Assembly: GCA_017397655.1 (NCBI GenBank)
Contig: JAFQIG010000056.1
Location: 6,306-70,305 of the forward strand
DNA length: 64,000 nt
From: Clostridia bacterium
Lineage (GTDB): Bacteria > Bacillota > Clostridia > Oscillospirales > Acutalibacteraceae
Reading direction: 5' to 3'
The first letter of the stretch is position 1; the number at the start of each line of letters is the position of its first letter. The translations under genes and the position numbers were made by a program. Below, piece after piece: positions 8,045-60,513 of this stretch. Under the pieces are notes generated by a model that searched no databases, had not been told where the DNA came from, and saw nothing but the letters and a program-made list of their open reading frames with translations.

Positions 8045-8050
8045 TTGAAG

Positions 8051-34878: not shown

Positions 34879-34940
34879 ACTTTCACTCCTCTCTTTTTTT
34901 CGTCACGATACACCACTTTTACAAAAAAATCAATGCAGAA

Positions 34941-35439: not shown

Positions 35440-35471
35440 CTGATTTATAATTTGTTTCATTTTTTATTCGG

Positions 35472-36176: not shown

Positions 36177-36219
36177 AATACAATAACCGAAACTTCTTTT
36201 GAAAGACGTGATATGATCA

Positions 36220-40800: not shown

Positions 40801-40902
40801 GGCTTCGCTCTGATACGCATCGGAACGGGCGCTCTGAGGCTCATATTTACTGACAACAGTAGCCTCGCTTGTGGATAAAACCATGTTGTACTGACTCATC
40901 AC
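37837..40902 (-). CDS. hsdR: Type I restriction enzyme R subunit HsdR
   Basis: 1021 aa. SF2 helicase motifs (TGSGKT, DECHRS) and an N-terminal PD-(D/E)xK-type region (DVTILVNGLPLIHVELK). Confidence 0.93.
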   Translation of the reverse strand: MMSQYNMVLSTSEATVVSKYEPQSARSDAYQSEAELEKAFIKMLTEQGYQYLDISCQSALIENLRVQIEKLNNYKFSDKEWKYFFENQIANPNEHIVEKTRRIQEDYIQVLKRDDGTSKNIYLIDKKNIHNNFLQVINQYTEDSGTHDNRYDVTILVNGLPLIHVELKRRGRPLREAFNQIDRYQRESFWAGCGLYEYIQLFVISNGTHTKYYSNTTRDLHVKERTSSRNKKKTSNSFEFTSFWADADNRTIPDLVDFTKTFFAKHTILSILTKYCVFTSESLLLVMRPYQIVATEKIISKIITSTNYKQTGTIDAGGYIWHTTGSGKTLTSFKTAQLATALPFIDKVLFVVDRKDLDYQTIKEYDRFEKGAANGNRNTAVLQKQLEDDSARIIVTTIQKLDIFITKNPDHPIRDKHVVLIFDECHRSQFGEMHTRIVGGTVKKGEKVIKFNKFFKNYHIFGFTGTPIFSENASSGGIPDLKTTEQAFGQKLHTYTIVDAINDKNVLPFRIDFVDTLKRKDGIRDRQVNAIDTEEAMQSPERIKGIVSYIIDNFDRHTKRNQFYMAKGKRLNGFNSIFAVSSIPVAKKYYYEFKKQLEEKQRDLKIATIFSYGANEEDGTNGLLADESFDTDMLDVTSREFLDNAIDDYNKLFKTNYDTSSKGFQDYYKDLSLKVKEREVDILIVVNMFLTGFDATTLNTLWVDKNLRQHGLIQAFSRTNRILNAVKSFGNIVCFRDLEQETNEAVSLFGDKNASGLVLLKSFEDYYFGYDENGKHVKGYEERIAELLQKYPLGREICGEKNQKDFVVLFGNILRLRNILSVFDKFIGNEILSPFDVQDYTSLYLDIKDDFTIKVEKESIRDDVVFELELVKQVEVNIDYILMLVAKYHDSNCTDKEIIGSIDKAIRSSIELRSKKELIEAFIDTVNVNTDVRNDWKKFVGEQKEKEIDEVIAEHRLKPEETKVFIENAFCDGGIKTTGTDIDKILPAMSLFGGAGNNRAQKKKAVLERLQKFFEKYSGLI

Positions 40903-40912
40903 TTCGCTCCTC

Positions 40913-41467
40913 CTATCTTTTCATATTGCTTCCCAAATCTTTTCTCATCTCTGTATAAAGGGCTGCTATATGTTGTTTGAAAATTTCAGTGCTCGGGATA
41001 TTTTCTCTTTTGAAGTTTTCCACACGACTCTCAAAACATAAAATATCCATATCAGTTACATGGCAAATCTCATATTCCTCGCCGTACTCATTAAACTCAG
41101 TCTCAAAAAAACCCGGATTATTCTGCGGATCGTTCTTGATGTAAAAGCTTCTATATTCCTCATAGTTTTTAATTACAAATTCGTAGAAAGCCTTGAAAGC
41201 CTCTTCTGTTTTAGTCGAAGAGAGAAGCTTCATTTTGGGTTTAAAATCCAGTAAAACTTGTATGTAGCTACTATCGTATGTTTTAAACCTATCATGCAGT
41301 AAATGTTCTGCTTCATCATAAAACTTAAAATACAACTCTGCCCTTTTTTCCAAAACAAGCTTTTTGACTTCGTTTTTATGTGTTATCGATAAAGTTATAA
41401 GTGCTGTAATAATTGATGTAATAATTGACACCACACCAGTTAGTATAATAATATAAAAATCGTTCAT
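40913..41467 (-). CDS. Hypothetical single-pass membrane protein embedded between hsdS and hsdR
   Basis: 184 aa with an N-terminal TM (IIILTGVVSIITSIITALITLSI). ATGA overlap with the hsdS stop. No family recognised. Confidence 0.6.
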   Translation of the reverse strand: MNDFYIIILTGVVSIITSIITALITLSITHKNEVKKLVLEKRAELYFKFYDEAEHLLHDRFKTYDSSYIQVLLDFKPKMKLLSSTKTEEAFKAFYEFVIKNYEEYRSFYIKNDPQNNPGFFETEFNEYGEEYEICHVTDMDILCFESRVENFKRENIPSTEIFKQHIAALYTEMRKDLGSNMKR

Positions 41468-42672
41468 ACGTTTGTCACCCCAAATGTCAACAACATATTC
41501 CTATAATGCTCATACTGCTTCTGCCTTGCTTCGATTTCGGCAGGAAGACCGATATTAAGATCGGAACAGATAGCATCAAAATTATCAAGAACTTCTACAA
41601 GACGATCCTGAACATCACGAGGTGGTAAAGGAATTTCAATACTCTCTATTGATGGGACATTTGAATGAACAACCTTGCTTTTAACTTTTCCTTTGCTCTT
41701 TTGCTGTCTTGCCAAAGAAGTTGACAAAACATAAGAGAGATACTTGGGGTTCTGATTATGTTTCAGAACAACTATATCACCACCGGCAAGACATTTTTCG
41801 TTGCCTACATAAGCAGTTGACTTCGCAATATCTTCAACGCTTTCACCGGTGATTGCAAAAAGAATATCTCCATACTCAAAATATTTGGGACTGTTCACAT
41901 ATTCGAGTTTGGTGTGTGAATAGCATTTGTCAAACCATATTCCGTATTTGGTATAAATTTCACCGTATCTGACACAAGGAATCCCTTCTTCGGTTACTTC
42001 ATCTCTCTTAATTCCTGCACCACGATAAATATCGGTTGCTATATCACCAAGTTTAACTCTGTGTATTTCTCCGATTCTGTCAAACGAAAGTAAATCATCA
42101 CGATAATACTCATACTGCTTTTTACGAGCTGTAAGCTCTGCTGTGAGCTCTGCTGTGAGCTCTGCTGTGAGCTCTGTAAAATTGTCCAGAATACGGACAA
42201 TTTCATTCTGCACCTCCATGGGCGGTACAGGGATTAAAAAGTCTTCTGTAACATGCAGAGAAATCTGTGGAAGAGAACCCATTCCTGAGGCAGCATCTCG
42301 GAATATTTGAATATTATTCTTCAAAACATAGTACAAAAATTTAACGGAGACTTTATCATCTGTTGTATAAGCCCACATTTCATTTTTAAATGTAAAAGGC
42401 TTGTCGTAATATACAACATCTATCACTCCACGCGACTGAACTAAAACAGCAGGGACTCTTGTAATATTAGCGTTTGGAATATCATCTTCAAAAGCATTAA
42501 TAACAGTTTTTCCACCGGCAAATACTTTTATATCACCATCAGGGTTATCAATCTCTTTCATTTTTCCTGCAGTAATAGGAGTTCCTTTTAATCGAGTGTA
42601 GACATCTTTTACCTTTCTATACTCTACACCATTGGGACAAAGTTCCTCTATCAGTTGTTCAAGTTTTGTCAT
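41464..42672 (-). CDS. hsdS: Type I R-M specificity subunit HsdS (type IC-like central region)
   Basis: Two TRDs separated by ...FTELTAELTAELTAELTARKKQYEYYRDDLL, with C-terminal ...EIEARQKQYEHYRNMLLTF. The start is taken at [18 protein letters not shown]. Confidence 0.9.
   Translation of the reverse strand: MTKLEQLIEELCPNGVEYRKVKDVYTRLKGTPITAGKMKEIDNPDGDIKVFAGGKTVINAFEDDIPNANITRVPAVLVQSRGVIDVVYYDKPFTFKNEMWAYTTDDKVSVKFLYYVLKNNIQIFRDAASGMGSLPQISLHVTEDFLIPVPPMEVQNEIVRILDNFTELTAELTAELTAELTARKKQYEYYRDDLLSFDRIGEIHRVKLGDIATDIYRGAGIKRDEVTEEGIPCVRYGEIYTKYGIWFDKCYSHTKLEYVNSPKYFEYGDILFAITGESVEDIAKSTAYVGNEKCLAGGDIVVLKHNQNPKYLSYVLSTSLARQQKSKGKVKSKVVHSNVPSIESIEIPLPPRDVQDRLVEVLDNFDAICSDLNIGLPAEIEARQKQYEHYRNMLLTFGVTNV
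42128..42175 (-). repeat. 12-bp tandem repeat x4 inside hsdS encoding (TAEL)4
   Basis: Plus strand gctgtaagctct, then gctgtgagctct three times (42128-42175). Confidence 0.95.
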
Positions 42673-43525
42673 TGATTCTATCCCTCGCACATTTTAATGC
42701 TTCAAAACTCTTATTGGAAAATAAAAGCCGAGAACAGTTTTTGATTATTTCCTTATTGTATGAAGCAATATTCTTGATCTGATATATATCAAAAAACGCT
42801 AAGTCATTTTTCAAAATATCTTTGTGAAATATTTCAACTGCAACAGTAGGTGAAAGCGGTACAAAATATGTCACTTCCGGTGATACTGCTGAAATGGGTT
42901 CATTTGTTTTTTTACTATGGTCAATTTTTATCACAGGATTGTCGGATGTAATAAACGGAAGTTCTGTATGATTAATTATGAAAATCCAATGCCAATCACT
43001 AAATAGATTTGCATAGAAATTGCTCATACCAAAATCTAAAATTTCAGATGTGTGGATGCGCTGAAAATCCGTTTTTGAATATTGCGGTATATCCGCATAA
43101 GGAAAACCATCTTTTATCTGTTGATAAATATCTTTATAATAATTTCTAAATGCCTCTGTTCTTGTTATTAACAGTGCAAATTGAGCAGAAAGTTGCTCTT
43201 TTTCTATCTGTAGAGAAGAGCAATCTCGATGCTGAGGATCAATAATTATCGTGTCAAGCAAAACACGTAATAATGTGGCAAGTTCTCCCTCTATTTTATT
43301 TCCAAAAAATTTTTCAATAATTTTCTTTTGTTCGCCAAGTTCTTCGATATCATAAAAACGTTTGATTACTGGAAACTTTCCCACTTTTGAGCTGTCACAT
43401 TTATTTTCCTGCACATTGTAGAAATAAAGCATTGAATCACGACCTTTATTCCCTTCAATGCCGAAATTTGCCAAATAGGCTACCGGAACAGTATGCGAAT
43501 GTTCTACTGTGTTTTTATTTCCCAT
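42659..43525 (-). CDS. Hypothetical protein, DUF4238-like, embedded between hsdM and hsdS
   Basis: About 288 aa. N-terminal [13 protein letters not shown] resembles the H..VPQFYL..F start of DUF4238, recalled from memory and not searched. Overlaps both neighbours. Confidence 0.5.
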
Positions 43526-45083
43526 TTTCGATCTCCGCAATTATTTTTGCAATCTCGTCACGGAGCGCCTGCTCACGTGCTACGATTTCTTCGATCTCTG
43601 CATTCAGCTTTACGATGTCGACCTTTTCTCTTATATCCTCTGCTTCGACGTAGGTTGAAACCGAAAGATTATAATCATTCTCTTTGATTTCATCGTATGA
43701 AACAAGTCGGGCAAAGTGAGGAGCATCCTCACGGCTTGTAAATTCCGATACGATCTTTTCGATATTTGCATCGGTGAGCTTGTTGTTGTTTGTGACTTTG
43801 ACAAATTCGGCTGATGCATCAATAAACAGCGTTTTATTATCCGCCTTTGACTTTTTAAGCACCATGATGCACGTTGCTATTGATGTGCCGTAGAAAAGAT
43901 TTGACGGCAGCTGAATAATACAGTCAATAAAGTTGTTGTCAATAAGATATTTGCGGATTTTCTGCTCTGCTCCGCCACGGTACATAATTCCGGGGAAGCA
44001 GACAATTGATGCCACGCCGTTTGTCGCAAGCCAGGAAAGCGAATGCATTATAAATGCCATGTCCGCTTTTGACTTCGGTGCCAACACGCCTGCCGGGGCA
44101 AACCGAGGGTCATTGATAAGCACGGGGTTATCCTCGCCCTCCCATTTGATTGAGTAGGGCGGATTTGAAACGATTACCTCAAACGGCTCGTCATCCCAAT
44201 GCTGCGGTGACAAAAGCGTATCCTCGTTTGCTATATCAAATTTATCATAGCCGATATCGTGAAGAAACATATTGATTCGGCAAAGGTTATATGTAGTGAT
44301 GTTGATCTCCTGTCCGTAAAAGCCCTGTCGCACCTTATCTTTTCCGAGTATCTTTGATGCCTTAAGCAGTAACGAGCCCGATCCGCATGCAGGGTCATAT
44401 ATCTTATTAATTTCTGTTTTGCCGACTATTGCAAGCTTTGTCAGAAGTTCGGAAACCTCCTGCGGAGTAAAGAACTCTCCGCCGCTTTTGCCTGCGTTTC
44501 CTGCATACATTCCCATAAGATATTCGTATGCATCACCAAAGGCATCTATCGTGTTATCCTGATAGTTGCCGAGATTCATATTGCCGATACCGTCAAGAAG
44601 CTTGACAAGCTTTTCGTTGCGCTTGCCGACCGTTGCACCAAGCTTATTGGAGTTGACATCAATATCATCAAACAAGCCTGCAAAGTCATCCTCGCTGAAA
44701 CTGCCCTTTGCAGATTCTTCTATATGTCGGAACACGTTCTCAAGTGTTTCATTGAGGTTTTCATCGCGAGAAGCTCTTTTTCTGACATTGCAGAAAAGCT
44801 CTGACGGCAATATGAAAAAGCCCTTTGATTCAACAAGTGTTTCTCTTGCCGTTTCCGCATATTCATCCGACATAAGTGCATATTCAAAACCGATATTGCC
44901 TGCATCATGCTCCAGCTTATTAATATAGTTTGTCAGATTCTCCGATATGTAACGATAAAACATTATTCCGAGTACATAACTTTTAAAATCCCATCCGTCT
45001 ACACTTCCGCGCAGTTCATCAGCAATGCCCCAAATCGTTCTGTGAAGCTCGTCTCTCTCCTGCTCCCTTTTGATATCCGCCAT
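43515..45083 (-). CDS. hsdM: Type I R-M N6-adenine DNA methyltransferase HsdM
   Basis: HsdM N-terminal domain; [10 protein letters not shown] (motif I); NPPYS (motif IV). Confidence 0.95.
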
Positions 45084-47605: not shown

Positions 47606-48472
47606 ATGAAAAAAACATTTTCAAAAGCGCTCGATAAGTTTAATAGTTTGAATAACTTTTGTAAATCCATGATTATTCTATCAATTATTGTTGTATCAGG
47701 CATAATCGTTTCTACATGTATGATTTTATCGAGAAACAACGTATACATTAAAGCAGAAGAACGCGAAACCGATGTTGCGCAGTCTGACGTTTCCGTTCTT
47801 GAAACGATGCCCACAGATATAGAAAAGATCGCCGAGACAACAGAAACAACCCATATAACAGAATTAACTGAACATCCTGTCATCGATGATCAAACAACTT
47901 CAAATTCTTGGAAAAGAACCTACAAAGAATACCTTTTGAACATATGTTCAAGTGATCCTCGTGCCTCTTATCTCAACTTTATTCTGCGTTATATCGATAA
48001 CGATGATATTCCTGAACTTTTGATAAGTAGTGGTGATTTTCATAATTCTACAGTCACAATCGTTACCTACTCAAACGGGGAGCTTAATGAATATGACGGA
48101 TTGGGATCATATGGCGAACTCTACTTTGAAGAACGATCGAATCAATTTTTCGCAACATATTCGGGTATGGGCGTTTTTGATTTAACTTGTTATTATATCA
48201 ACAACGGTACTATTGTAAAGGATTTTCAACTTTCATATAGCGATCCCGAGGTTGTAGACTTAGATCTTGAAAAAATCTTTCACTATAATAATAAACTAAT
48301 TTCAGAAAGCGACTTTGTTCGTATTTATAATGAAAAAATCCCCGATTGGTATGCAACAATTGAAGTCTATAATGATGCGTGGGGCGTCCAACCTTTGGAT
48401 AATAACACTTTTACTACCTACACAAAATTAACCGAAGAAAACGTTAGAATTATTTTGGATCCCCTTAAATAA
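47606..48472 (+). CDS. Hypothetical membrane-anchored protein
   Basis: 288 aa with a TM at residues ~22-42. No family recognised. Confidence 0.5.
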   Translation: MKKTFSKALDKFNSLNNFCKSMIILSIIVVSGIIVSTCMILSRNNVYIKAEERETDVAQSDVSVLETMPTDIEKIAETTETTHITELTEHPVIDDQTTSNSWKRTYKEYLLNICSSDPRASYLNFILRYIDNDDIPELLISSGDFHNSTVTIVTYSNGELNEYDGLGSYGELYFEERSNQFFATYSGMGVFDLTCYYINNGTIVKDFQLSYSDPEVVDLDLEKIFHYNNKLISESDFVRIYNEKIPDWYATIEVYNDAWGVQPLDNNTFTTYTKLTEENVRIILDPLK

Positions 48473-48929: not shown

Positions 48930-49937
48930 TCAGTTGAGTAACGATTTCATTATGGTGAGGTCGGTGGAATTGACGATTCCGTCACCGTTGAGGTCGGCGG
49001 CTTTTTTGTTTATGTCGGAGTATTCGGAGTCGCTGCCTGTGATGATGTCACGCATTGCAGAAAAGTCCTCGGCAGAGACAGCCGCACCGTCTCCGTTTAT
49101 GTCACCGTCAATTATTACGGTGTAGGTGTTATCGATAAGTCCGTATTCTCTGTTGATAAGCTCGATTGTCGTACCTGTCGTGATAACATCGTCACTTATC
49201 TCCATAATCGCATCACCGTCTACCGATACATAATCCCTTACCGTCTCTTTCGTCAGTCCCGACGGCAAGCCTCTGACATTCAACTCCTCATCAATCGTTG
49301 CCGTCTTTGATGTCAAGTGCGATTCGTCGATAAAATGAATGTCTGTGTATCCCTCGTAAAAGTCATTCCATTTGAGCAAATACTTATGGATTTCGGAATT
49401 CTCATAGCAATAAACATTTTCACATATTTGTGAGTTAATAATCGTGCCAACAAATGTCGTTACATTTTTTCCTATTACAATATTTTCGACATCATAAATG
49501 CCCCATTTTTCTATGTTTTCTACATTATTGCCAATAATGAGGGTTTTTAGTTCTACTTCGTGCCACGGACCGTGAGTGTCAAGTTCAAAAGCACTTTTAG
49601 CAATTGTTGTAACAGGTACACCGTCTATTTCATCGGGAATACGTAAAACTTCTTTATTGCAACTAAACAAATAGCCATAGTTAAAGATATAATCATACAC
49701 CTTGAAGCCGGTAATAACGATTTCCGTTCCGTCATTAATGTAGTGACCGGAAAAGTCATCACTCGGAATGCTGTTTCTCTCGGCAAGCACTTTCTGGACA
49801 TATATCATATCTTCTGCCGTTCCGCTTGCAGAAACACCCTGTTCCGTATCATTATCGGTTATAATCGAAGTGGGAATACCTATGCTGATAAAAAAACTCA
49901 TTATGAGGGACAGTATCTTTTGAAAAAGCTTTATCAT
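48930..49937 (-). CDS. Secreted LRR(BspA-like)-dockerin protein
   Basis: ATG at 49937 after a GGGAGG RBS; signal peptide; IPDEIDGVPVTTIAKSAFE LRR_5-like unit. The C-terminus is a type I dockerin (DGDINGDG...DLNGDGIVNSTDLTIMKSLL). Confidence 0.85.
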   Translation of the reverse strand: MIKLFQKILSLIMSFFISIGIPTSIITDNDTEQGVSASGTAEDMIYVQKVLAERNSIPSDDFSGHYINDGTEIVITGFKVYDYIFNYGYLFSCNKEVLRIPDEIDGVPVTTIAKSAFELDTHGPWHEVELKTLIIGNNVENIEKWGIYDVENIVIGKNVTTFVGTIINSQICENVYCYENSEIHKYLLKWNDFYEGYTDIHFIDESHLTSKTATIDEELNVRGLPSGLTKETVRDYVSVDGDAIMEISDDVITTGTTIELINREYGLIDNTYTVIIDGDINGDGAAVSAEDFSAMRDIITGSDSEYSDINKKAADLNGDGIVNSTDLTIMKSLLN

Positions 49938-50038
49938 TGTCAAAACCTCCCATTTATTTCTGTTTTTATTGTAACATAAATATTTCTTTTTTACAATAGT
50001 AAATCGCCCTTGCTATGTGGTACAGCAAGGGCGATTGT

Positions 50039-51244
50039 TCAGTTAAGTAACGATTTCATTATGGTGAGGTCGGTGGAATTTACGATACCGTCACCGTTGA
50101 GGTCGGCGGCTTTTTTGTTAATGTCGGAGTACTCGGAGTCGCTGCCTGTGATGATGTCACGCATTGCGGTGAAGTCCTCGGCAGAGACAGCCGCACCGTC
50201 TCCGTTTATGTCACCGTCTACGACCGCCGTATATGTTTTGTATACAAATTCGGGATCGGCGTTGACAAGTTCTATTTTTGTACCGGTTTTTACAACTTCG
50301 TCCGAAACTCTGATTTCTGCTTCTCCTTCAACTTTGAGATATGATTTTAAATCATTTTCAGTCAGTCCGCCTTGAAGTCCCGATATTACATAATCCTCAC
50401 TTATGTCAACCGTTTCCGAAGTCAGATATGCGTTCTCGATCAGGTGATATTCGTTATTGATCTCTCCGCTTTTAAGCTTTTGATGTATTGTGGAGTTTTC
50501 ATAACAGTAGACGATACATTCCGAATTTATTATATTTTCTTCTCCAAAATTCAATTCGGCACTTAAAACAACAAGTTTTTTTGCGTTTACGATATTTCCA
50601 CCCCAAAACTTCAACCCTTTCGGGATAACGAATGTATTCGTGTTTCTGATTCCTCCGAAACAATACGAATCTATATACTCGATTGATTCTGGCATTTGAG
50701 GTATATATGTACTATTAAAATAATCACCGAACGCCAAAGACGAACCTTTTATAACACGCAAATTATTATTCAACTCGATCTCGTTCAAAAAATAACAACA
50801 TTCAAATGCACCTTGTTCTATAATCTCGACATTCTTACCTAACTCTATACTTTCAATATGACTGTCAAGGAAAGCACAACGTCCTATATATCGAACATTG
50901 TCACCGATTTTAACAGACTTTATAAAATCAAGAGAGTTGGAACCGCCTTCATTAAAGAACGCCGTATCGCAGATTGTTGTTACAGGATAGCCGTTAATTT
51001 CATCAGGTATCATGATGTGTTCAACTTTACTGTATCCGCTTTCTTCAGAAAATTTTAATCCTTTTACGAATACTTCCGAATTTGATGAACCGCCGATAAA
51101 AACATCCAAATACTCATGGTCTACCAGTGTTTCAGAAGATATACCGACAGTAGGTGTCTCGATAATTGAATCATTACAAATCGTTGCATTTGGCATAAGC
51201 AGAACAAGAAAATATAAAAGAATTTTCTTAATAAACGCAAACAT
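50039..51244 (-). CDS. Secreted LRR(BspA-like)-dockerin protein
   Basis: ATG at 51244 (MFAFIKKILLYFLVLLMPNA) after an AGGTGA RBS. Several LRR_5 units and the same dockerin module. Confidence 0.85.
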   Translation of the reverse strand: MFAFIKKILLYFLVLLMPNATICNDSIIETPTVGISSETLVDHEYLDVFIGGSSNSEVFVKGLKFSEESGYSKVEHIMIPDEINGYPVTTICDTAFFNEGGSNSLDFIKSVKIGDNVRYIGRCAFLDSHIESIELGKNVEIIEQGAFECCYFLNEIELNNNLRVIKGSSLAFGDYFNSTYIPQMPESIEYIDSYCFGGIRNTNTFVIPKGLKFWGGNIVNAKKLVVLSAELNFGEENIINSECIVYCYENSTIHQKLKSGEINNEYHLIENAYLTSETVDISEDYVISGLQGGLTENDLKSYLKVEGEAEIRVSDEVVKTGTKIELVNADPEFVYKTYTAVVDGDINGDGAAVSAEDFTAMRDIITGSDSEYSDINKKAADLNGDGIVNSTDLTIMKSLLN

Positions 51245-51341
51245 AATATCACCTGATAATGTTAAAATATTATTATAATTATAGTATAAACAAATACTAT
51301 AAGTCAAGTAATACTTTTAAACTCCATACACATACATACTT

Positions 51342-53270
51342 TTAAACTCCATACCCATATTCTTCAGTTTTTTTATAGTGGGCATCGTGATAATCTGTAA
51401 AATAAATATTGTTGTAAGAAACAAATCTGTTTTTTGATGCAAGAGCATTTGTAGCACTTATTACGTCTTCTGAATTGACCTCACCATCCCAAGCCGGATC
51501 TGTAATCGTTGCCTCACTATCCCAATTTTGCATTATTTTAGAATTTCTCAAAACAAACCTAAAACCTACGAACATACATTTTTTTACAGTGCAAAAGATA
51601 TGAGAACCGCCTTCTGTATAATATTCATTCATAATAGCAGAATTGATTGTATATGGAGCATTGTTAATAAAGTTACAATTTCTAAATGACCAATGCATAT
51701 AAATTCTACGATTACTTCCAAATGAAAAAAACACGCCGTTTCTATATATATCTCTCAACTCATCAATCTCTGAAGCACTGTTGGGTATAGGGGAGAATAT
51801 AAAATCGCAAAAAGCAAACTCAACAAAACTAAGAACGCCTTTTGTGTGCGCAGGTAATGCTTCGTACGTTTTCGCTTTTGTATAGTCAATAACGATGTCA
51901 TTTATTTTAAATGTACAATCCTTAATCAACATATTATCGTTTTCAACATTTCTACTATTGCCAACAGTAAAAAACTTATGATGAAAATCGAAGTGGCAAT
52001 TCTTGATAACCAGATCGTTAACATAGTAGTTTGGTGAACCGCTCTTGTTTGATGGGATATTAAAAGCACCGCCGGCACTTGTATAATCGGGATGTCCGGA
52101 AAAACTGCAGTTTGTCACTACGACATTTTTTACACCTGCAAAAACAAGTCCGCAATATCTGACGTTGGTTGCGATTATATTCTCTATAACACAATTGTGC
52201 GTATTGTGACCGACATTAACTGCACAATAACAGTTGTCTATAATAATGTTTTTGATGACGAGAGAATCACTTTCCCTGATATCGTCGGTAGCTTCATCCG
52301 CCCAGTTTCTTTGTATTGCAGTACCCTCACCTGCATTAAGAAGTGTGAGATTTTCAAACGTGTAGTTGTTAATTGATCTTGAGGCATATATACAATGATT
52401 ACCGTGTCCTTCGTTATAAATATTCCAATCACAGGAGATGTATGAATCAACAAGATATCCACCGGTAACAAAGGAATACTCAATACCGGTAATCACTTTT
52501 TCGATATGGAGATTTTCCAGTCGGATATTTGCATTTGACGATGTAATATCCATGCCGTAGTTTGCGTTTTCCATTGTAACGTCGTGAATATGAATGTTGT
52601 TACAATCTGCAATATAAAAACACTTGTTATAAGTACTGTTGTTTCCTGTCGTAAGACAATGATACAGTCTGATATCCTTTACCTCAATATCGGAAACACC
52701 ACTCATATAGATCAAAGTGCTTTCATCTGTACCATTAGCAAGTGTCTGCAACGGCATAAGCATGGCGCCGCAACCGTTGAGCACTTTTCCCGATGGTATA
52801 TTAATCTTAGCGGAGATGCAATAACATTTACCGTGTGTCAGGCGAACCTCTTTGACATCTTCATGACTTAAAGCATCATCAATAATGCCTATTCTTGTAA
52901 TAATATTATTATCACGTATTGTACTATTATTATCTGTCTTGCCCGAGTTTGCGGCGACAAGTGAAGTGCCGTAATCGTGAACTTTTTTGATGGGTGGCTC
53001 TACCGGTGTGTTATGCGATTCCAAATACTCCTCAAATGTTATCGGAAACGCACCGTCACCTTTAGCGCCGAGCTGATCGATGTTGACTGTACCGTTTTCG
53101 ATAATCATAACGGCTTTGAGCTGCTTATCTGCTGTATTGACAAGCGTGTGCTCGAAATGAGAGCTCTCATCAGCGAGACCCTGTTCCACCTTGAAACGTG
53201 CACCGCCGCCGTCATCGACAGCGTAATATCCGAGCGTTACAATCTCATCGCCAACGTTGAAGTGTTTCTT
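51342..53270 (-). pseudogene. 5'-truncated paralog of the beta-helix genes (may still be expressed from GTG 53189)
   Basis: The frame is open to 53270 (..KKHFNVGDEIVTLGYYAVDDGGGARFKVEQ..) and is homologous to residues ~23 onward of the two upstream paralogs. It has no ATG or RBS, and the missing 5' end is replaced by the terminator of the dockerin gene. Confidence 0.55.
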
Positions 53271-53276
53271 TTACTT

Positions 53277-53328
53277 TACAAAAAATCCTTCGCTTTCACG
53301 GTAGTGTTCCGAGCATAGCGAAGGATTT
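53277..53328 (-). terminator. Intrinsic terminator of the dockerin gene 53333-54370
   Basis: AAAUCCUUCGCU-22 nt-AGCGAAGGAUUU followed by UUUUG. Confidence 0.65.
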
Positions 53329-53332
53329 TCAT

Positions 53333-54370
53333 TTAGTTGAGTAACGATTTCATTATGGTGAGGTCGGTGGAGTTTACGATACCGTCACCGTTGAGGTCGG
53401 CGGCTTTTTTGTTAATGTCGGAGTATTCGGAATCGCTTCCCGTGATGATGTCACGCATTGCGGAAAAGTCCTCGGCTTCGCCTGTCAACCCGTCTCCGTT
53501 TATGTCTCCGTCAATTATTACGGTGTAGGTGTTGTCGATAAGTTCGTACTCTCTGTTGATAAGCTCGATCGTTGTACCTGTTGTAATGACATCGTCACTT
53601 ATCTCCATGATCGCATCACCGTCTACGGAAACATAGTCCTTTACCGTCTCTTTCGTCAGTCCCGACGGCAAGCCTCTGACATTCAACTCATCATCAATTG
53701 TTGCCGTGTTTGATGTCAGATGTGATTCGTCGATGATAAATATTTCTGCATTTTCATAGTTTTGTTTTATCGAAAAGTTGTATATTTCGGAGTCTTTATA
53801 GCAAAACAGCTTCTGTCCCATTTTCCAACCGAAATTCGGTTGCTCCTCATCTATATACATCAGCTCATCATTCAGATGAAAAGGAGATACATTTTTGCCT
53901 GCTATAACATTGGGTATGTCCACAACGCCCAAATACTCTATTGTTTTAATATTGTTACCCAAAACAATAGTGTGCGGTTTAATATCGGTAGCAATCGTTC
54001 CCGCAAACCCCCATTCAAAGGCGCTTTCAGCAATTGTCGTAACAGGAATACCATCTATTTCGTCAGGAATCCTAATATTATAGTTTTTGTTAAAAAATTC
54101 ATAACCGTCATACCCATTTGCATCATATGACTCTGCGCGGAAACCTCTGATTACAATTTCTGTACCGTCATTTATATAATAGCCACCAAATTCATCACTT
54201 GGAATCTGATTCCAATAATCAAGCATTTGTTGCTCATATATTATCCCCGGATCAATATCCGGATCATAGTAGATCATATTATTCTCTGTTTCTATTACAC
54301 TTGCAGAAATATTAACACTCATAAAAATACTCATTATGAGGGACAGTATCTTTTGAAAAAGCTTTATCAT
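53333..54370 (-). CDS. Secreted LRR(BspA-like)-dockerin protein (paralog of 48930-49937)
   Basis: Same signal peptide (MIKLFQKILSLIMS) and near-identical C-terminal ~115 aa including the dockerin. Has its own TTGTAA-17-TATAAT promoter at ~54395-54425. Confidence 0.85.
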   Translation of the reverse strand: MIKLFQKILSLIMSIFMSVNISASVIETENNMIYYDPDIDPGIIYEQQMLDYWNQIPSDEFGGYYINDGTEIVIRGFRAESYDANGYDGYEFFNKNYNIRIPDEIDGIPVTTIAESAFEWGFAGTIATDIKPHTIVLGNNIKTIEYLGVVDIPNVIAGKNVSPFHLNDELMYIDEEQPNFGWKMGQKLFCYKDSEIYNFSIKQNYENAEIFIIDESHLTSNTATIDDELNVRGLPSGLTKETVKDYVSVDGDAIMEISDDVITTGTTIELINREYELIDNTYTVIIDGDINGDGLTGEAEDFSAMRDIITGSDSEYSDINKKAADLNGDGIVNSTDLTIMKSLLN

Positions 54371-54435
54371 TGTCAAAACCTCCCATAATTTATATTTTTA
54401 TTATAACATAAATATTTCTTTTTTACAATAGTTTC

Positions 54436-54472
54436 GGGTCGGATATTTACGACTATCGGAAATATCCGACCC
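54436..54472 (-). terminator. Hairpin/terminator after the beta-helix gene 54480-56435
   Basis: GGGUCGGAUAUUU-11 nt-AAAUAUCCGACCC, a 13-bp perfect stem; weak U-tract. Confidence 0.55.
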
Positions 54473-54479
54473 TGTCAAA

Positions 54480-56435
54480 TCAGATGCCGAAATCGACACC
54501 CTTTACATAGTGGGTGGTGTTGAATCCGTCAATAATTTCGTTATATTGATGAATGTTATTGATTGCTATGAAGCGCTGTTTGTTATTCATAGCATTAACA
54601 GCAGTATCGACAGACACATTATTACCGGCTCCCGGCGGATAAAAACACGGGTTGGTATCACTGCTTTTGTCATCACCTGTAGTTGAAACACGTATAGTCC
54701 AACGAAAATTGACAAGAGTACAGTTTTTCATTGTACAGTGAACTTTCTTAGTAACAACATTATTATACATTTCATCGGACATCGAATTGCTTAGAACAGG
54801 ACTGTTAACCGTTACACTACCGTTATTAATGAATTTACAACGATCAAATGTCCAATGCATCTCTTTATTACGGTCACTGGTAAAATAGAAAAAAACACCG
54901 TTTTGACTGTGACTGTCATTAAAAAAGCGTTCTGCTTCAAACACACATTTAATAAAGGTTACGTTTGAAACAATTCCCTTAACCAGCGCAGGTGTTGAAG
55001 CTTGTGCCATCTGAGGCGAGAATATATGGAAATAACAGTTCTTTACTATTAAACTATCACCGAATAAAATTCTGCTACTTCCAATCGAAATAAATTTACG
55101 GTTAAAATCAAATTTGCAATTATCAACAATAACATTTTTAATATAATCCAATTCTTTAGAGTCACTCGGAACGGATATTCCACAAGCGGCTTCGTCCATG
55201 CTTTTGAAAGAACAGTTGGTGATAAGTACATCTTCCGCACCGCAAAGTGCAATACCTGATTCCATGACGTTGGTTGCAATGATATTTTTAAAGACACTAT
55301 TACGTGTTCTTTTACCGACATGAACAGCACAGTCACAGTTGTCAATAATAATATTGCTAAACAACAGGTTTTCTCCGAAATAATCAAATGAATCAAGTGC
55401 CTCGTTGCGGTTTATAGCATTACCTTTACCGGCATTACGCAATGTAAGATTTTTGAATACACAATCCTTCATTGCTCCGCCGGCGTAAATGCAATGCTTG
55501 CCGTTTGCTTTATCCGCAGAGAGAAGAAGATTGTAATCACATGAAATATATGAATCGCTTATCAAGCTGTTCATTATATCTCCGATCTCCAAGCCTGTGT
55601 AAACATCTAATATATGCACATTACGGATTGAAACGGTGTTGTAATCAGTACCTTTTTTGCTTGCTGTAGATTTAATTCCTACATGAGAACGTTCGATAGT
55701 AACATCGTGAATATCAACGTTTCTGCAATGCTGAATATAGATTGCTCTGTACGTATAGTCATCGCTGATAAATGCGTTATGGATAAGTCGTACATTCATA
55801 ATTTCGATATTCTCATTAAATGCAGTACCGCTGTTGCGACAATTAATGAGATAGTGTAACCCTGATAGTGGAGTTGTGTTAATATACATTATTGTGGCAC
55901 TGTTTCCGTCAAGAACCTTGTTGCTCTGCATATTGATGGTCGATTTTGTTCCGTAGATTTTGCCTGCGGTAAGACGAATGCAATGCACCTCCGAATTTGA
56001 AATCGCTTCATTGAAAAACTTTGCATTATCTGTTGCTGTAATAGCAACCTCGTTTTCATCCAGATACTCGGAACTGCCGTTATTGATATTAAGCGTTTTT
56101 ATGGTTCTCATATCACAGCTTTCCGGATTGCTATACGAATCATTAAATGATAACGGCAGAACCGCATCACCTTTAGCACCGAGCTGATCAATATTGACCG
56201 TGCCGTCCTCGATGATCATAACGGCTTTGATCTGCTTATCTGCTGTATTGACAAGCGTGTACTCGAAATGAGAGCTCTCAGCAGCGAGATCCTGTTTCAC
56301 TCTGAAGCGTGCACCGCCACCATCTCCGCTGCTGTAATAGCCGTGTGTAACAATTTCATCACCCGGCTTGATGTCGGTTATTGTCTGTGAAATTGTACCT
56401 AAATCGGCAGTTGCAGCTATTGTATAAACTGACAT
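54480..56435 (-). CDS. Right-handed beta-helix protein (pectate-lyase-3-like), no signal peptide
   Basis: 651 aa with an AAGGAGG RBS. N-terminal GDEIVTHGYYSSGDGGGARF...VNIDQLGAKGD, then many beta-helix rungs (..VFKNIIATNV.., ..VLITNCSF.., ..VIVDNCKF..). Confidence 0.8.
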   Translation of the reverse strand: MSVYTIAATADLGTISQTITDIKPGDEIVTHGYYSSGDGGGARFRVKQDLAAESSHFEYTLVNTADKQIKAVMIIEDGTVNIDQLGAKGDAVLPLSFNDSYSNPESCDMRTIKTLNINNGSSEYLDENEVAITATDNAKFFNEAISNSEVHCIRLTAGKIYGTKSTINMQSNKVLDGNSATIMYINTTPLSGLHYLINCRNSGTAFNENIEIMNVRLIHNAFISDDYTYRAIYIQHCRNVDIHDVTIERSHVGIKSTASKKGTDYNTVSIRNVHILDVYTGLEIGDIMNSLISDSYISCDYNLLLSADKANGKHCIYAGGAMKDCVFKNLTLRNAGKGNAINRNEALDSFDYFGENLLFSNIIIDNCDCAVHVGKRTRNSVFKNIIATNVMESGIALCGAEDVLITNCSFKSMDEAACGISVPSDSKELDYIKNVIVDNCKFDFNRKFISIGSSRILFGDSLIVKNCYFHIFSPQMAQASTPALVKGIVSNVTFIKCVFEAERFFNDSHSQNGVFFYFTSDRNKEMHWTFDRCKFINNGSVTVNSPVLSNSMSDEMYNNVVTKKVHCTMKNCTLVNFRWTIRVSTTGDDKSSDTNPCFYPPGAGNNVSVDTAVNAMNNKQRFIAINNIHQYNEIIDGFNTTHYVKGVDFGI

Positions 56436-56495
56436 TAATTTTTCCTCCTTTACTTTTTATGCGGTGAGTGACCTTTCGGACACCCACCGTTTTTA

Positions 56496-58367
56496 TTATG
56501 ACTGTTCGGATTCCTCGTTATTTGATAATCCGTACTCCTCTGCCTTCTTGTAATGCGTAGTATTAACTCCGGTTGTGAGAGTATCGAAAAGATATAGGTT
56601 GTTATATGCCAGATATCTTTTCTTATCCGTGAATAGCGTTTCTGATGCCTCGATAATATCTGCATCCGGATAGCCACCGAACGCAGGATTGATTTTTACA
56701 ACACCTGTCTGAGGAACGATATTACCTTCCTCATCCTTGCACGGAACGGCAGACGTCTCTGTCGATGTGCAAATGCGCGTAATCCAACGGAAGCCTTTGA
56801 AAGAACTATTTCTTACAGAAACAGTTGTACTGTCAGCATTCTGTAAATCAACCCAAATGGGAGAATTAAGCGTGACAATGTTTCCGTTTGAATCTTTTGT
56901 ATTGTTGAAAAATCTGCAATTATCAAAAGACCAGTTCAAATCCTTACCGTTCTCAAACGGCGCAAAGTAAAACAGAGCTGCAACAGAATCGCTGTTACTT
57001 TCGTTGAGGGGATATCCGTTCACTTCAAACAGACAATTATCAAAAGCTGCATTGAGGGTTTCTCTCGGATAAATCATCGACGGGGATACTGTGGCTGGGT
57101 CCATATCGGTGAGCCTGAAAATACAATCGTTGAAGAAAAACATATTAAAAGCCTGTGTGTTATCAGCGGGTTTTGCGTAAACCCAATTAGATTTGCTTTC
57201 AAACAAACAATTGTTAAAAGCTATGCTTTCGCTTCGCAGGGAGTACATATAAACATTTGTTTCCTGCGTATCTTTAAATACACAGTTGTTGAAATGTATA
57301 TCTCCTGCGATTCCGAAAGAAAGGGAAGTGTTTACATTATTCACAAAAACTCTGTCGAATTGAGTTTTTTCGCCCGACAAACTCATGGCTAAATCACAAT
57401 TCATTATTGATATATCCTCAAAGCGATTATTGTCAACGATGCTTGAAGATGAAATACCTGTTCCTGTTCGAGCGGTGTCAATATTACCGGAGATAGAGCA
57501 GTTTGCAAAATAGTTATTCATATTGCCATCGCCCAAAGAGATACCTCGGTTTAACCCTGCATTTGAGGGAGCAATAGAGATACCTGAAAACACAGAACCA
57601 GAAAGATTTGAACAGCGTATTCCATAGGATTTAGCAAAAATTTGTACATAGCGAATATCCGCAGTACAATACTTCACTGACGTATCGTAAAATTTGATGC
57701 CGTCACATAAAGACTTGATTACCAGATCACGCATCCTTACCGATTCTGCATCAACAAAGCCTATAGCGCTGTTTCCGGAGAATTTGTAGAACTTAAGGCT
57801 CTCAATATTTACAGTCGCACTTGATGTAAACTTCATAATGTCTGTTGAAATATTTGCAATCTCTAAAAGAGATGCGGGCTCGGCAGCAGAACTGCAAATC
57901 TTTTTTGCGATACTTCCCGAATAATTGATTGTGCTCTTTACACCGTAGATTTTTCCGGGAGAAAGCATAACAACGCAGATATCCTCTCTGTTTAACGCTG
58001 CAGTAATAATGGGTGAATTATCTTTAGCACCTGTGTTAGCACTAAATGTATTCTGCCTGTATGTGCTGTTATAGACAGTTTCCTCAGGCAGAACCGCATC
58101 ACCTTTAGCACCGAGCTGATCGATATTGACCGTACCGTTTTCGATAATCATAACGGCTTTGAACTGCTTTTCTTCCGTATTGACAAGCGTGTACTCGAAA
58201 CAGGAACCTTCAGCAGCGATACCCTGTTCTACTCGGAAGCGTGCACCTGCACCATCATCAATATGGTAATACCCTTGAGTGATAATTTCGTCTCCAACGT
58301 CTACACCGTTGAAAACTTCTGTGCCCATATTAAACAAATCTGTTATGGGTAATTTGTAAATTGACAT
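56496..58367 (-). CDS. Right-handed beta-helix protein (pectate-lyase-3-like), no signal peptide
   Basis: 623 aa with an AAGGAG RBS. The N-terminal ~95 aa are conserved with 54480-56435 and 51342-53270, and the remainder is divergent. Confidence 0.8.
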   Translation of the reverse strand: MSIYKLPITDLFNMGTEVFNGVDVGDEIITQGYYHIDDGAGARFRVEQGIAAEGSCFEYTLVNTEEKQFKAVMIIENGTVNIDQLGAKGDAVLPEETVYNSTYRQNTFSANTGAKDNSPIITAALNREDICVVMLSPGKIYGVKSTINYSGSIAKKICSSAAEPASLLEIANISTDIMKFTSSATVNIESLKFYKFSGNSAIGFVDAESVRMRDLVIKSLCDGIKFYDTSVKYCTADIRYVQIFAKSYGIRCSNLSGSVFSGISIAPSNAGLNRGISLGDGNMNNYFANCSISGNIDTARTGTGISSSSIVDNNRFEDISIMNCDLAMSLSGEKTQFDRVFVNNVNTSLSFGIAGDIHFNNCVFKDTQETNVYMYSLRSESIAFNNCLFESKSNWVYAKPADNTQAFNMFFFNDCIFRLTDMDPATVSPSMIYPRETLNAAFDNCLFEVNGYPLNESNSDSVAALFYFAPFENGKDLNWSFDNCRFFNNTKDSNGNIVTLNSPIWVDLQNADSTTVSVRNSSFKGFRWITRICTSTETSAVPCKDEEGNIVPQTGVVKINPAFGGYPDADIIEASETLFTDKKRYLAYNNLYLFDTLTTGVNTTHYKKAEEYGLSNNEESEQS

Positions 58368-58426
58368 TAAATTTTTCTCCTTAATAATTTTTAATAGTTA
58401 CGAATAAGAGAAAAATCTGCTACAAC

Positions 58427-58466
58427 ATAAAAAACACCTCCTGCAAGAAATTACACTTGCAGAAGG
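58427..58466 (-). terminator. Intrinsic terminator inside the 5' leader of the beta-helix array (attenuator candidate)
   Basis: CCUUCUGCAAG-UGUAAUUU-CUUGCAGGAGG (11 bp, all paired including one G-U) followed by UGUUUUUUAU. It lies ~60 nt upstream of the start codon. Confidence 0.6.
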
Positions 58467-58573
58467 CCCGATTTTGCGGTATAATAAAACTACCGCACGA
58501 GCCTTTGCTTGTGTGGGGATCGGTGGCAGGCTGCTGTAACTTTGGTCGGGAACTGCGGCCTGCTTACCAAACA

Positions 58574-58587
58574 GAACAAATGTTCTA
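58574..58587. promoter_or_regulatory. LexA (Cheo-box)-like palindrome AGAACAAATGTTCT
   Basis: Matches GAAC-N4-GTTC and extends to a 14-bp palindrome. It lies 7 nt downstream of the -10 box, overlapping the predicted transcription start. Confidence 0.4.
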
Positions 58588-58594
58588 TAATTTA

Positions 58595-58623
58595 TTATAT
58601 ATATCTTTTTTCTGTTTGTCAAT
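58595..58623 (-). promoter_or_regulatory. Consensus sigma-A promoter driving the beta-helix array
   Basis: Minus strand TTGACA (58618-58623), 17 nt, TATAAT (58595-58600). Confidence 0.65.
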
Positions 58624-58761
58624 AGCTTTAATATGAATTTTTTGTAAATACCCTCGAAGCTGTCATTTTTCGTCAGCTTCGGGGGATTATGTTTTTCTGA
58701 TTCTTATTGCATATTTTTGTCTTATGAAGTATAATTATAAAAAACTCGGGAGGTAACAGGG

Positions 58762-60513
58762 ATGAAAAAGACATTCAGGGTACTGCTTATTACGGCGGTA
58801 GTGTTATCCGTTATTATTCAGTCTGTTTCACTTGCGTTTGCAGGGGACAAAAATCCGTTGTCAATATATGTTGCATCGGACGTTCACTTCAGACCCGATA
58901 CAGTTCTGCCGCCTATCGGTGAGGTGCAGAGTCTGCCCGGTGATCCGATTTTTTCTCATTGCAACACAAAGGGCATGATGACCTATGAAGCAGGCGCCAT
59001 TGTTGATGAGTTTTTGTCGCGCTTTGAACAGTCCGACAGCGAGATTCTGCTCATTCCCGGAGATATCAGCGAGGACGGTTTTTTTGAAGAACATCTTGCT
59101 ATTGCCGAAAAGCTTCTGCAATTCAAACAGCGTACGGGCAAGCGCATCTTTGTAATTCCCGGTAATCACGATATCAGAACGTCAAAGTCAAAAAACCGAC
59201 TTGATCTTGAGGATTTTATGGATATCTATGCCGAGATCGGTTACGATGAGGCGATAGAGATTCACGATACATCAGCATCCTTTACTGCTGATCTTGACAG
59301 CAACTACAGGCTTATCGGCATTGATGCTTGTGTGTACCGTGAGGACAATGCAGTTATCAGCGAAAGTCTTTATTCATGGATTGAAAAGCAGGTGCAATCT
59401 GCCAAAGCTGACGGTAAAAAAATGATTGCCATGGTGCATCACAATGTTCTTGAGCATTTTGCGATAGAGGGACTTGCAATGGGTCTTCTTTGTGTAGAGG
59501 ATCATCGGACATTTTCGTCTGCACTTGCAGATTGGGGTATCAAATATGTCTTTACAGGTCACGGTCACGCCAATGATATATCGGCTGCCGTATCGGCAAA
59601 GGGCAACAGAATCTATGATATCGAAACAGGCAGTCTTATCACATATCCCAACGCATACAGAAAAGTTACATTTTCCGATGAATGTGTTGATGTTAAAACG
59701 GAGTACATCCGCAACATTGATATTTCTCTTTTGCCCGACGGTTACACCGAAGAACAGCTTGACATGATACAAAACGATTTTGTCGGATACAGTTTAGGCA
59801 GTATGCGTTCGGGAATGAGAAGCTTTACAACAACGATTCCCGACCTTATTGAGGATCTGTCAGAATCTCTTAAAATTAAGGAAGGCACAGCTTCTTACGC
59901 TGTGCTTGAAGAGCTTCTTGAAACTTTAAAGAATACGGTTGAGCTTCCTCTCTACGATAAAGAAAACACCAAAGAGATTGACAGCGTAAGTGAGATTGCA
60001 GCCTTTGCGGGAATAGAGCTTCCCGAAAGCGATTATGTTGATCTGGTTGATATAGGAGCAGGGATTTATGCAGGCTTTTATGCCGGTGACGAAGCACTCA
60101 GCTTGCACGGGTCAACAGAACTCAAGCTTTTGAGTAACGCACTTAATGCCATTCTTGTTTATGCTCTTGTTAACCTTCCTCTTTCTCCCGTAAACACTCT
60201 TCTGGCAGAGCTCGGAGCGTTTGATCTGTACTTTTTGCCAAGCACATCGGTCTACACACTTGCGGCAAAGATTGCGTATCTTCGCACGGCAGGCGAAAAG
60301 ATCGCTATAGAGCTTATCGCTCCCGTTGCGGGCGGTATCATCAATGATGTTTCTGATCCCGTAGACCTTGATGTTATTCTTGAATCATATTCGGAAACTT
60401 CCGATTCTTTTCAGAATGAAGTACCTCTGACATTCTTCGGTATCCTGAAAAAACTCTTTGAGGTTTTTATGGAAACTGTTTCAAATATTTTCAGATTCTT
60501 TTTAGGAAAGTGA
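58762..60513 (+). CDS. Secreted calcineurin-like metallophosphoesterase
   Basis: Signal peptide; SDVHF, GDISEDG, GNHD, VHHN and GHGH motifs. Confidence 0.8.
   Translation: MKKTFRVLLITAVVLSVIIQSVSLAFAGDKNPLSIYVASDVHFRPDTVLPPIGEVQSLPGDPIFSHCNTKGMMTYEAGAIVDEFLSRFEQSDSEILLIPGDISEDGFFEEHLAIAEKLLQFKQRTGKRIFVIPGNHDIRTSKSKNRLDLEDFMDIYAEIGYDEAIEIHDTSASFTADLDSNYRLIGIDACVYREDNAVISESLYSWIEKQVQSAKADGKKMIAMVHHNVLEHFAIEGLAMGLLCVEDHRTFSSALADWGIKYVFTGHGHANDISAAVSAKGNRIYDIETGSLITYPNAYRKVTFSDECVDVKTEYIRNIDISLLPDGYTEEQLDMIQNDFVGYSLGSMRSGMRSFTTTIPDLIEDLSESLKIKEGTASYAVLEELLETLKNTVELPLYDKENTKEIDSVSEIAAFAGIELPESDYVDLVDIGAGIYAGFYAGDEALSLHGSTELKLLSNALNAILVYALVNLPLSPVNTLLAELGAFDLYFLPSTSVYTLAAKIAYLRTAGEKIAIELIAPVAGGIINDVSDPVDLDVILESYSETSDSFQNEVPLTFFGILKKLFEVFMETVSNIFRFFLGK

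Follow-up and report, generated by a model that had tools for sequence, protein, structure and literature searches.

Predicted two-layer control of a beta-helix and dockerin operon in a Clostridia bacterium by a LexA-type operator and a new leader attenuator

A putative operon of six co-oriented genes encoding beta-helix, dockerin and leucine-rich repeat (LRR) proteins lies in a 64-kb stretch of DNA (hereafter the window) from contig JAFQIG010000056.1 of an uncultured gut or rumen Clostridia bacterium of the family Acutalibacteraceae. We propose that this operon is controlled at two layers, by a LexA-type operator at the transcription start and by a new cis-acting transcription attenuator in the leader of the first gene, and we give this reading a probability of about 0.6. 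The original prediction, made from the letters of the sequence, had raised both SOS-type control and a cis-acting attenuator as possibilities, and both have gained ground. The palindrome GAAC-N4-GTTC recurs at the same promoter position in all loci that could be compared, four of which hold two to three boxes, and conservation, compensatory changes and a predicted terminator/antiterminator alternative in the leader argue for attenuation. All coordinates of the region refer to the minus strand unless marked otherwise, and its elements are the following.

58631..58648, minus strand: conserved A-rich element TTACAAAAAATTCAYA, located ~10-25 nt ahead of the -35 hexamer.
58594..58622, minus strand: sigma-A-type promoter TTGACA-17-TATAAT, matching 12/12 consensus positions, with hexamers that align in 7/7 loci.
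58573..58586, minus strand: predicted LexA-type (Cheo-box-like) operator AGAACATTTGTTCT, with a GAAC-N4-GTTC core that is invariant here in 7/7 loci.
58526..58563, minus strand: helix P1, GCAGGCCGC/GCAGCCUGC, with an almost invariant 19-nt loop AGUUCCCGACCAAAGUUAC (58554-58535); 4/10 pairs change on both sides.
58506..58525, minus strand: single-stranded linker CACCGAUCCCCACACAAGCA leading into P3, with CACAC..AGCAAAGGC kept in 3/3 leaders.
58463..58505, minus strand: helix P3, AAGGCUCG/CGGGCCUU, enclosing hairpin P3a (UGCGGUA/UACCGCA), from the RNAalifold consensus.
58429..58467, minus strand: predicted intrinsic terminator with a 12-bp stem GCCUUCUGCAAG/CUUGCAGGAGGU, an 8-nt loop and G + U6; the stem is identical in 3/3 leaders.
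58420..58441, minus strand: Shine-Dalgarno (SD) sequence GGAGG (58441-58437, in the 3' arm of the terminator) and two-codon mini-ORF (open reading frame) AUG UUG UAG (58428-58420), by direct reading.
58365..58382, minus strand: ribosome-binding site (RBS) AAGGAG (58382-58377) and ATG (at 58367) of the first beta-helix gene.

The promoter is where the original prediction had placed it, with the -35 hexamer TTGACA at 58622-58617, a 17-nt spacer and the -10 hexamer TATAAT at 58599-58594. Because a perfect TTGACA-17-TATAAT is found only twice in the window (0.03 expected), we consider the promoter to be real and very strong; the other copy drives a T-box leader. The A-rich element TTACAAAAAATTCAYA is nearly identical in the window and in the two relatives that share its leader (L001 and L002), is recognisable in a third (L026), and is possibly an UP element or the site of an extra factor. 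The 14-bp palindrome reported downstream of the promoter is likewise present. It begins 7 nt past the -10 hexamer and spans roughly +1 to +14, and once transcribed the operator is also a 5'-terminal 5-bp RNA hairpin. The warning that about one GAAC-N4-GTTC would occur by chance in such a window was justified, since two are present against 0.96 expected and a single match is not significant. The second perfect copy, GAACATATGTTC at 47938-47949, falls within an ORF without Pfam match (47606-48472) and is most likely the chance match expected for this window size.

The weight of the palindrome comes instead from relatives, which are few. A search of 185,579 species genomes yielded one beta-helix locus, L001, in an Acutalibacteraceae metagenome-assembled genome, and 23 matches at E<1e-30 emerged when 1.84 billion representative proteins were searched exhaustively with HMMER. 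Word-indexed protein searches, even with a 23-sequence profile, recovered almost no homologues, with one outside homologue. The contigs of the HMMER matches brought the independent operon starts with usable upstream DNA to seven, six besides that of the window (the window, L001, L002, L026, L028, L029 and L031), and in the promoter alignment GAAC-N4-GTTC stands invariant 6-8 nt past the -10 hexamer in every one. Four of the seven carry one or two extra boxes, either in the non-transcribed stretch between the -35 and -10 hexamers or ahead of the former. In L026 the +1 box, AGAACGTTTGTTCG, is joined by CGAACAAATGTTTA in the spacer and by CGAACAAATGTTCA ahead of -35, three boxes in all. The +1 box of L028 is accompanied by another ahead of -35 and by a degenerate copy in the spacer, and L029 and L031 have one spacer box and one +1 box each. 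When 139 kb of non-redundant sequence were surveyed for GAACN4GTT[CT], 12 of 17 sites fell within 702 bp of these promoters, a density of 17/kb versus 0.036/kb elsewhere (~470-fold enrichment). Since the extra boxes occupy DNA that is never transcribed, the palindrome must be a DNA operator and not merely an RNA hairpin.

The element AGAACATTTGTTCT matches 11/14 positions of the consensus CGAACRNRYGTTCG, with a perfect core. GAACN4GTTC is the Firmicute LexA consensus and has been applied to clostridia (PMC4234289), and DAP-seq in Clostridium thermocellum recovered a LexA motif of the B. subtilis type, with three sites at lexA (PMC8457756). This match to the Firmicute and clostridial consensus makes LexA the most economical candidate for the binding protein. 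The arrangement resembles that of Firmicute LexA (DinR) SOS boxes (the 'Cheo box' of B. subtilis and of C. thermocellum lexA) in its dyad, in its position at the promoter and start, and in the occurrence of one to three tandem boxes. It differs from known LexA boxes in that the regulated genes encode tailspike-like beta-helix and dockerin proteins and not DNA repair functions, and in that a single box is here combined with an RNA attenuator. By its inverted repeat, promoter position and conservation, the DNA element passes the sequence-level tests of a Firmicute LexA operator.

Downstream of the operator extends a leader of about 219-223 nt in total, of which ~155 nt, terminator included, form the structured part. 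The 223-nt leader folds with a z-score of -4.65, a stability reached by 0/200 shuffled sequences. The pairings that had been read from the sequence do exist, but they had been described as mutually exclusive, whereas P1, P3 and the inner hairpin are mutually compatible: GGCUCG/CGGGCC is a portion of P3 (58505-58498 with 58470-58463), and P3a is formed by UGCGGUA (58497-58491) with UACCGCA (58481-58475). The terminator hairpin was also correctly seen, as 11 bp if the basal G·U is left out and 12 with it. Its stem (58467-58436) includes six G-C pairs and is followed by GUUUUUUAU (GUUUUUU), it is the strongest found in a 3.5-kb scan, and this G+C-rich hairpin with its U-tract, upstream of a coding region as expected of an intrinsic terminator, is identical in three loci save for two base differences in the L002 loop, the only changes in the terminator. 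Its distance to the RBS is about 46-54 nt, shorter than the ~60 nt first given.

The structured leader with its terminator is shared by the window (58436-58588), L001 (5773-5924) and L002 (7779-7920), three of the seven loci; in the remaining four, leaders are short and, by direct reading, have no terminator. Column identity among the three sequences is ~87% over 170 nt. The conserved stretch runs from TTACAAAAAATTCA upstream of the -35 hexamer to ATGTTGTAGCA just beyond the U-tract, and sequence outside it is unalignable. The beta-helix proteins encoded behind the three leaders are only 29-35% identical, and even in their most conserved block the third codon positions of identical residues agree at only 50-65%. 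The genes that neighbour the cassette also differ, being a divergently transcribed Metallophos gene, glutamine synthetase III and NAPRTase, respectively. These comparisons support conservation of the leader far beyond neutral expectation. Recent horizontal transfer was considered as a cause of this conservation and ruled out, since synonymous sites and flanks are saturated. Four further contigs of the same species carry leaders 100% identical to that of the window and so add no information.

The alignment of orthologous leaders that the original prediction had proposed as a check revealed a conserved secondary structure. When the alignment is read with the RNAalifold structure, 97% of its cells are paired. 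Double-sided changes affect four pairs of P1 and one of P3, five in total, and sliding the register by one to three columns leaves 0-1 such changes and 32-46% pairing. P3 has in addition to its one compensatory change two one-sided changes, P3a holds G·U variants, and several variants are G·U pairs that fit RNA of the sense strand only. Such compensatory changes, coming from three sequences, lend modest support to the conserved structure expected of an attenuator. The P1 loop AGUUCCCGACCAAAGUUAC is invariant save for one deleted A, and the linker CACACAAGCAAAGG is essentially invariant; the segment 58506..58525 may bind an effector or serve as a junction. No conserved reading frame runs across the three leaders. 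A protein-coding leader, in the form of a 74-aa ORF (58398-58622), was rejected because it starts inside the -35 hexamer, lacks an in-frame start after the transcription start site and has its frame broken in L001 and L002.

The only real competition within the leader is between P3 and the terminator. The last five nucleotides of the 3' strand of P3, GCCUU, are also the first five of the terminator 5' arm GCCUUCUGCAAG, so that AAGGC/GCCUU at the base of P3 (AAGGC at 58505-58501) and the bottom 5 bp of the 12-bp terminator stem compete for the same bases. The overlap noted at the outset is present, with the correction that the shared segment is GCCUU and not just CC, and an antiterminator/terminator switch is plausible. 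Because its 3' strand is shared with the terminator 5' arm, P3 would act as the antiterminator. With P3 intact, only a 7-bp CUGCAAG/CUUGCAG hairpin can form, 5-6 nt from the U-tract, and this short hairpin should not terminate. Constrained folds of the three sequences gave terminator/antiterminator energies of -55.9/-55.5, -52.0/-53.5 and -48.3/-50.5 kcal/mol, and local energies place P3 with the short hairpin 2-4 kcal/mol better than P3a with the full terminator. On these calculations the design of the leader appears bistable, its two folds being nearly isoenergetic. A possible loop-loop contact between GUUAC (P1 loop) and GUAAU/GUGAC (terminator loop) was also seen; both L002 loop changes keep the pairing, but two substitutions prove nothing. 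Pseudoknots of the P1 loop with UCGGG or UUUGGU were discarded, as they are not conserved in L001 and L002.

The 3' arm of the terminator contains a perfect SD sequence, GGAGGUG, and AUG UUG UAG follows 8-11 nt later. The segment AUGUUGUAGCA is kept in all three leaders despite indels that vary the length of the U-tract, and conservation stops at ...GCA. In L026 (about 2665-2690) an SD sequence and AUG AUU UGA occur without structured RNA, and the case of L028 (about 4920-4945) is ambiguous, with AUG CUG UGA in one frame and a longer in-frame alternative in another. The SD/mini-ORF unit could act as a stabiliser by binding ribosomes, or serve to read out the open conformation.

From sequence features, conservation, covariation and energetics we infer a mechanism in which LexA as the binder, termination, an effector and the direction of switching are the predicted parts. 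At the DNA layer, a dimeric repressor, most likely LexA, would sit on AGAACATTTGTTCT over the transcription start and block the sigma-A promoter; DNA damage would trigger RecA-stimulated self-cleavage of LexA, and the promoter would be derepressed. At the RNA layer, the first ~155 nt would fold as the 5' hairpin (the transcribed operator), P1 with its 19-nt loop, and P3 with its inner hairpin. As long as P3 is held, only the 7-bp hairpin could form at its distance of 5-6 nt from the U-tract and RNA polymerase would read through; once P3 is opened, the full terminator would form and transcription would stop at 58434-58429. An effector (a protein, a small molecule or another RNA) probably decides between P3 and the terminator, and the best candidate sites for it would be the invariant P1 loop and the linker CACACAAGCAAAGG.

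The two layers may be historically linked. The three leader-bearing loci have a single box, and the spacer of the window clade, CAGAAAAAAGATAT, resembles a decayed version of the spacer box of L029 and L031, CAGAACAAATGTTT. This decay, together with the two to three operators of the leaderless relatives, suggests that the attenuator replaced a second operator, and it may have taken the place of extra operators as a second brake on leaky expression.

Several observations weigh against this two-layer reading. On the DNA side, the box flanks of the window clade are A...T and those of the consensus C...G, the LexA consensus is drawn from other Firmicutes and may not be that of these organisms, no regulator gene stands next to the window operon, and no prophage or lysis genes near the operon in the window make SOS control an obvious fit. 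On the RNA side, the leader is known from only three sequences and pair probabilities are split on the default state, the window favouring the terminator (0.59 vs 0.37) and, unlike it, L001 (0.93) and L002 (1.0) favouring the antiterminator. In addition, the terminator and the AAGGC/GCCUU overlap never vary, so the switch itself has no covariation support.

The nature of the repressor is one point at which another explanation has to be considered. The operator could be genuine but belong to a dedicated dimeric repressor (e.g., Xre/SinR-like), leaving the operon outside the SOS response. The A/T flanks of the window clade and products of depolymerase-like and dockerin type, with no obvious link to DNA damage, fit such a repressor. 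Nevertheless, core and spacing are those of the LexA consensus in Firmicutes and clostridia, the boxes of L026 have canonical CGAAC flanks, the multi-box layout is like that of lexA promoters, and no linked regulator gene accompanies any of the seven loci, all of which makes us regard a dedicated repressor as unlikely. The genes lexA, recA and uvrBA were absent from the window and from the fetched loci of the relatives. Far more improbable is the view that the palindrome matters as an RNA 5' hairpin only and matches the LexA consensus by chance. About one match per window is indeed expected, and the flanking pair of the hairpin varies as U·G, C-G and U-A across the three leaders, but the boxes in non-transcribed DNA of L026, L028, L029 and L031 already contradict it.

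The leader invites similar scrutiny. It could be free of any effector, a constitutive and partly efficient terminator that dampens leakage from a strong promoter, accompanied by RNA-stability elements (the 5' hairpin and the SD/mini-ORF). 5' hairpins and STAB-SD elements stabilise mRNAs in Firmicutes, the leader-bearing clade lost the extra operators of its relatives, and its RNA starts with a hairpin without 5' overhang and holds a perfect SD sequence followed by a two-codon ORF. An invariant 19-nt loop, an invariant linker and a balanced alternative helix are not needed for damping, and we hold this explanation to be about as doubtful as that of a dedicated repressor. Somewhat less probable again is a stand-alone small RNA gene of ~155 nt that acts in trans, with the beta-helix genes expressed by read-through only. 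Conservation that extends from the promoter to ~10 nt past a strong terminator would suit such a gene, and as no separate gene promoter is evident both roles could coexist; yet the unit was found in three of three cases directly upstream of the beta-helix family, in three different neighbourhoods, and no other copy turned up in one metagenome-contig scan, three viral-contig scans, and phage and plasmid searches. In these, three patterns run against viral contigs gave chance matches in coding DNA only, a 22-base two-block pattern run against JGI metagenome contigs gave one unrelated high-GC match, and blastn of the leader against phage and plasmid collections gave only generic A-rich promoter sequence in Enterococcus phages. 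The least probable alternative, which we consider nearly negligible, would make the leader a member of a riboswitch or leader family described before. Its dissimilarity to known riboswitch classes had been noted at first reading, and the all-Rfam search advised there (Rfam 15 cmscan of 4227 families, at gathering thresholds and at E<=10, over a 461-nt region) returned only chance-level scores of 11-21 bits against thresholds of 40-150; the homologous loci matched no family either.

Comparison with known RNA regulators places the proposed attenuator in context. A structured 5' leader with a terminator before the first gene is shared with riboswitch platforms, T-box leaders, protein-dependent attenuators and the lambda pR'-6S RNA-tR' system, and terminator/antiterminator leaders would also have in common with it an alternative helix that draws on nucleotides of the terminator 5' arm, as well as a default product in the form of a short terminated RNA. 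Unlike known attenuators, this leader matches no Rfam family, its overlap is only 5 nt, and its states are near-isoenergetic. Firmicute 5' stabilisers (the 5' hairpin of the aprE leader and the cry3A STAB-SD) resemble it in that a hairpin occupies the predicted 5' end and the untranslated leader contains a strong SD-like sequence; here, unlike in those, the hairpin is the transcribed operator and the SD sequence lies inside the terminator stem and is followed by a two-codon ORF. Two established types of antitermination target were considered and rejected. In ANTAR-type targets two hairpins with loops of six nucleotides stand in tandem and the second overlaps the terminator, but the P3a loop has 9 nt (7 in L002) and that of the short hairpin 8 nt. 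A RAT must overlap the terminator, and the similar motifs read from this sequence (GCAGGC and GUUAC) come in reversed order, with none overlapping the terminator.

The genes of the putative operon, whose co-transcription is suggested by gene order and orientation, are as follows.

48930..58367, minus strand: six co-oriented genes, the putative operon.
56496-58367, minus strand: beta-helix protein 1.
54480-56435, minus strand: beta-helix protein 2.
53333-54376, minus strand: dockerin protein.
51342-53189, minus strand: 5'-truncated beta-helix protein 3.
50039-51307, minus strand: LRR and dockerin protein.
48930-49943, minus strand: dockerin protein.

The three paralogous beta-helix proteins (~620 aa) lack a signal peptide and vary in their middle part, while both termini are conserved; the three dockerin/LRR proteins are secreted. 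A Pfam scan of the first beta-helix protein gave no match. Its AlphaFold2 model is a right-handed beta-helix (pLDDT 85.5), in agreement with the beta-helix array first described, and its best Foldseek matches in the PDB and BFVD are phage tailspike depolymerases at about 10-14% identity. The phage-like origin that had been suggested for the array therefore holds at the level of fold but not of sequence: tblastn against 50,697 phage genomes found no match, and no phage genes lie nearby. The window is ordinary chromosome, with a type I restriction-modification system, a dcw (cell-division and cell-wall synthesis) cluster, an RHS protein and an agr-like quorum-sensing module.

SOS-controlled bacteriocin operons (colicins, pyocins and tailocins) offer a further parallel, for they also have a strong promoter with LexA-type boxes, products without signal peptide, and phage-derived or receptor-binding-like proteins with conserved ends and a variable middle. 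The present locus differs from them in having no killing, immunity, lysis or tail genes and in its Gram-positive host, and a bacteriocin function of the beta-helix operon is pure speculation. We would nonetheless put forward, as a tentative and rather doubtful extension of the two-layer reading, that the leader represents a new class of antitermination RNA, which senses a ligand or factor and adds a second signal to SOS, such as a damage- or lysis-related metabolite or a dedicated RNA-binding protein. It would gate tailspike-like polysaccharide depolymerases without signal peptide; when cells of rumen or gut Clostridia are damaged, they could release these proteins, together with the dockerin partners, as a system of bacteriocin-like or biofilm-remodelling type.

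Literature searches turned up neither a leader attenuator paired with an SOS box nor SOS control of tailspike-like or dockerin operons. If the two-layer reading is correct, the LexA regulon of uncultured Clostridia would gain a non-repair operon of tailspike-like and dockerin type, and there would be a natural case of an SOS operator stacked on an RNA attenuator. The sister loci, which use two to three operators instead of an attenuator, would offer a case of regulatory substitution. The undescribed structured leader with its invariant 19-nt loop is a candidate new riboswitch or protein-binding antiterminator, and the promoter-leader cassette is small (about 260 bp). Since the family is very rare (~23 clusters among 1.8 billion representative proteins) and only three leaders are available, the general impact is modest unless the effector is new.

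A number of other features were observed around the cassette and its relatives. Directly upstream of the conserved promoter, where the neighbouring gene is divergent, lies a terminator-like hairpin (58651-58680, minus strand; 11/12 bp; CCCCCGAAGCUG...CAGCUUCGAGGG), and in L001 and L002 a hairpin terminator likewise immediately precedes the promoter-leader cassette; the hairpin might shield the SOS promoter against read-through, or be carried along with the cassette. On the opposite strand, a promoter-like TTGACA-16-AATAAT (11/12; 58361-58388, plus strand) overlaps the start codon of the first beta-helix gene and would drive antisense transcription across the leader, toward the divergent Metallophos gene (58762-60513). 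The TTGACA of this site is what the Met-Ser codons give in reverse complement, so the site may be due to chance. Upstream of another family member (P0011), contig L023 opens inside a different and strongly self-complementary leader (positions 1-151), with GGGGCUGU...ACAGCCCC around GGUCGAGUC/GACUCGACC, the contig being too short to judge; this leader includes CGACCAAAG, a 9-mer common to the invariant P1 loop.

Within the operon, the third beta-helix paralogue (51342-53285, minus strand) is without roughly its first 22 codons, an RBS and any promoter. Its N-terminal homology starts at the junction ...GGATTTTTTGTAAAGTAAAAGAAACACTTCAACGTTGGCGA..., just past the terminator of the dockerin gene before it, and the same GGATTTTTTGTAAAGTAAAAGAAACACTTCAACGTTGGCGA junction occurs in a second module of a dockerin gene and a truncated beta-helix gene (L033, 4850-6731), located ~3-4 kb beyond the right end of the window in a contig that shares its right-hand gene order. 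These modules look like duplicated, possibly silent cassettes.

Elsewhere in the window, the T-box leader (115 bits; 7804-8079, minus strand), with its perfect consensus promoter at 8051-8079, precedes genes (2212-7859) for a P-loop CbiA/ParA-like protein, three 2-oxoacid:ferredoxin oxidoreductase subunits, an HTH-cupin regulator and an AMP-binding enzyme, an unusual set; no aminoacyl-tRNA synthetase or transporter gene stands behind the leader. The agr-like module (28071-37506) consists of AgrB (28071-28655), a LytTR response regulator (35472-36176) and a GHKL kinase (36220-37506), and brackets a 1469-aa RHS-repeat/DUF4474 protein (29817-34226) and a BspA-type LRR protein (28753-29835). The type I restriction-modification operon (37837-45083, minus strand) holds a DUF4238 gene (42659-43540) between hsdM and hsdS, and a 184-aa ORF without Pfam match (40913-41467) between hsdS and hsdR.

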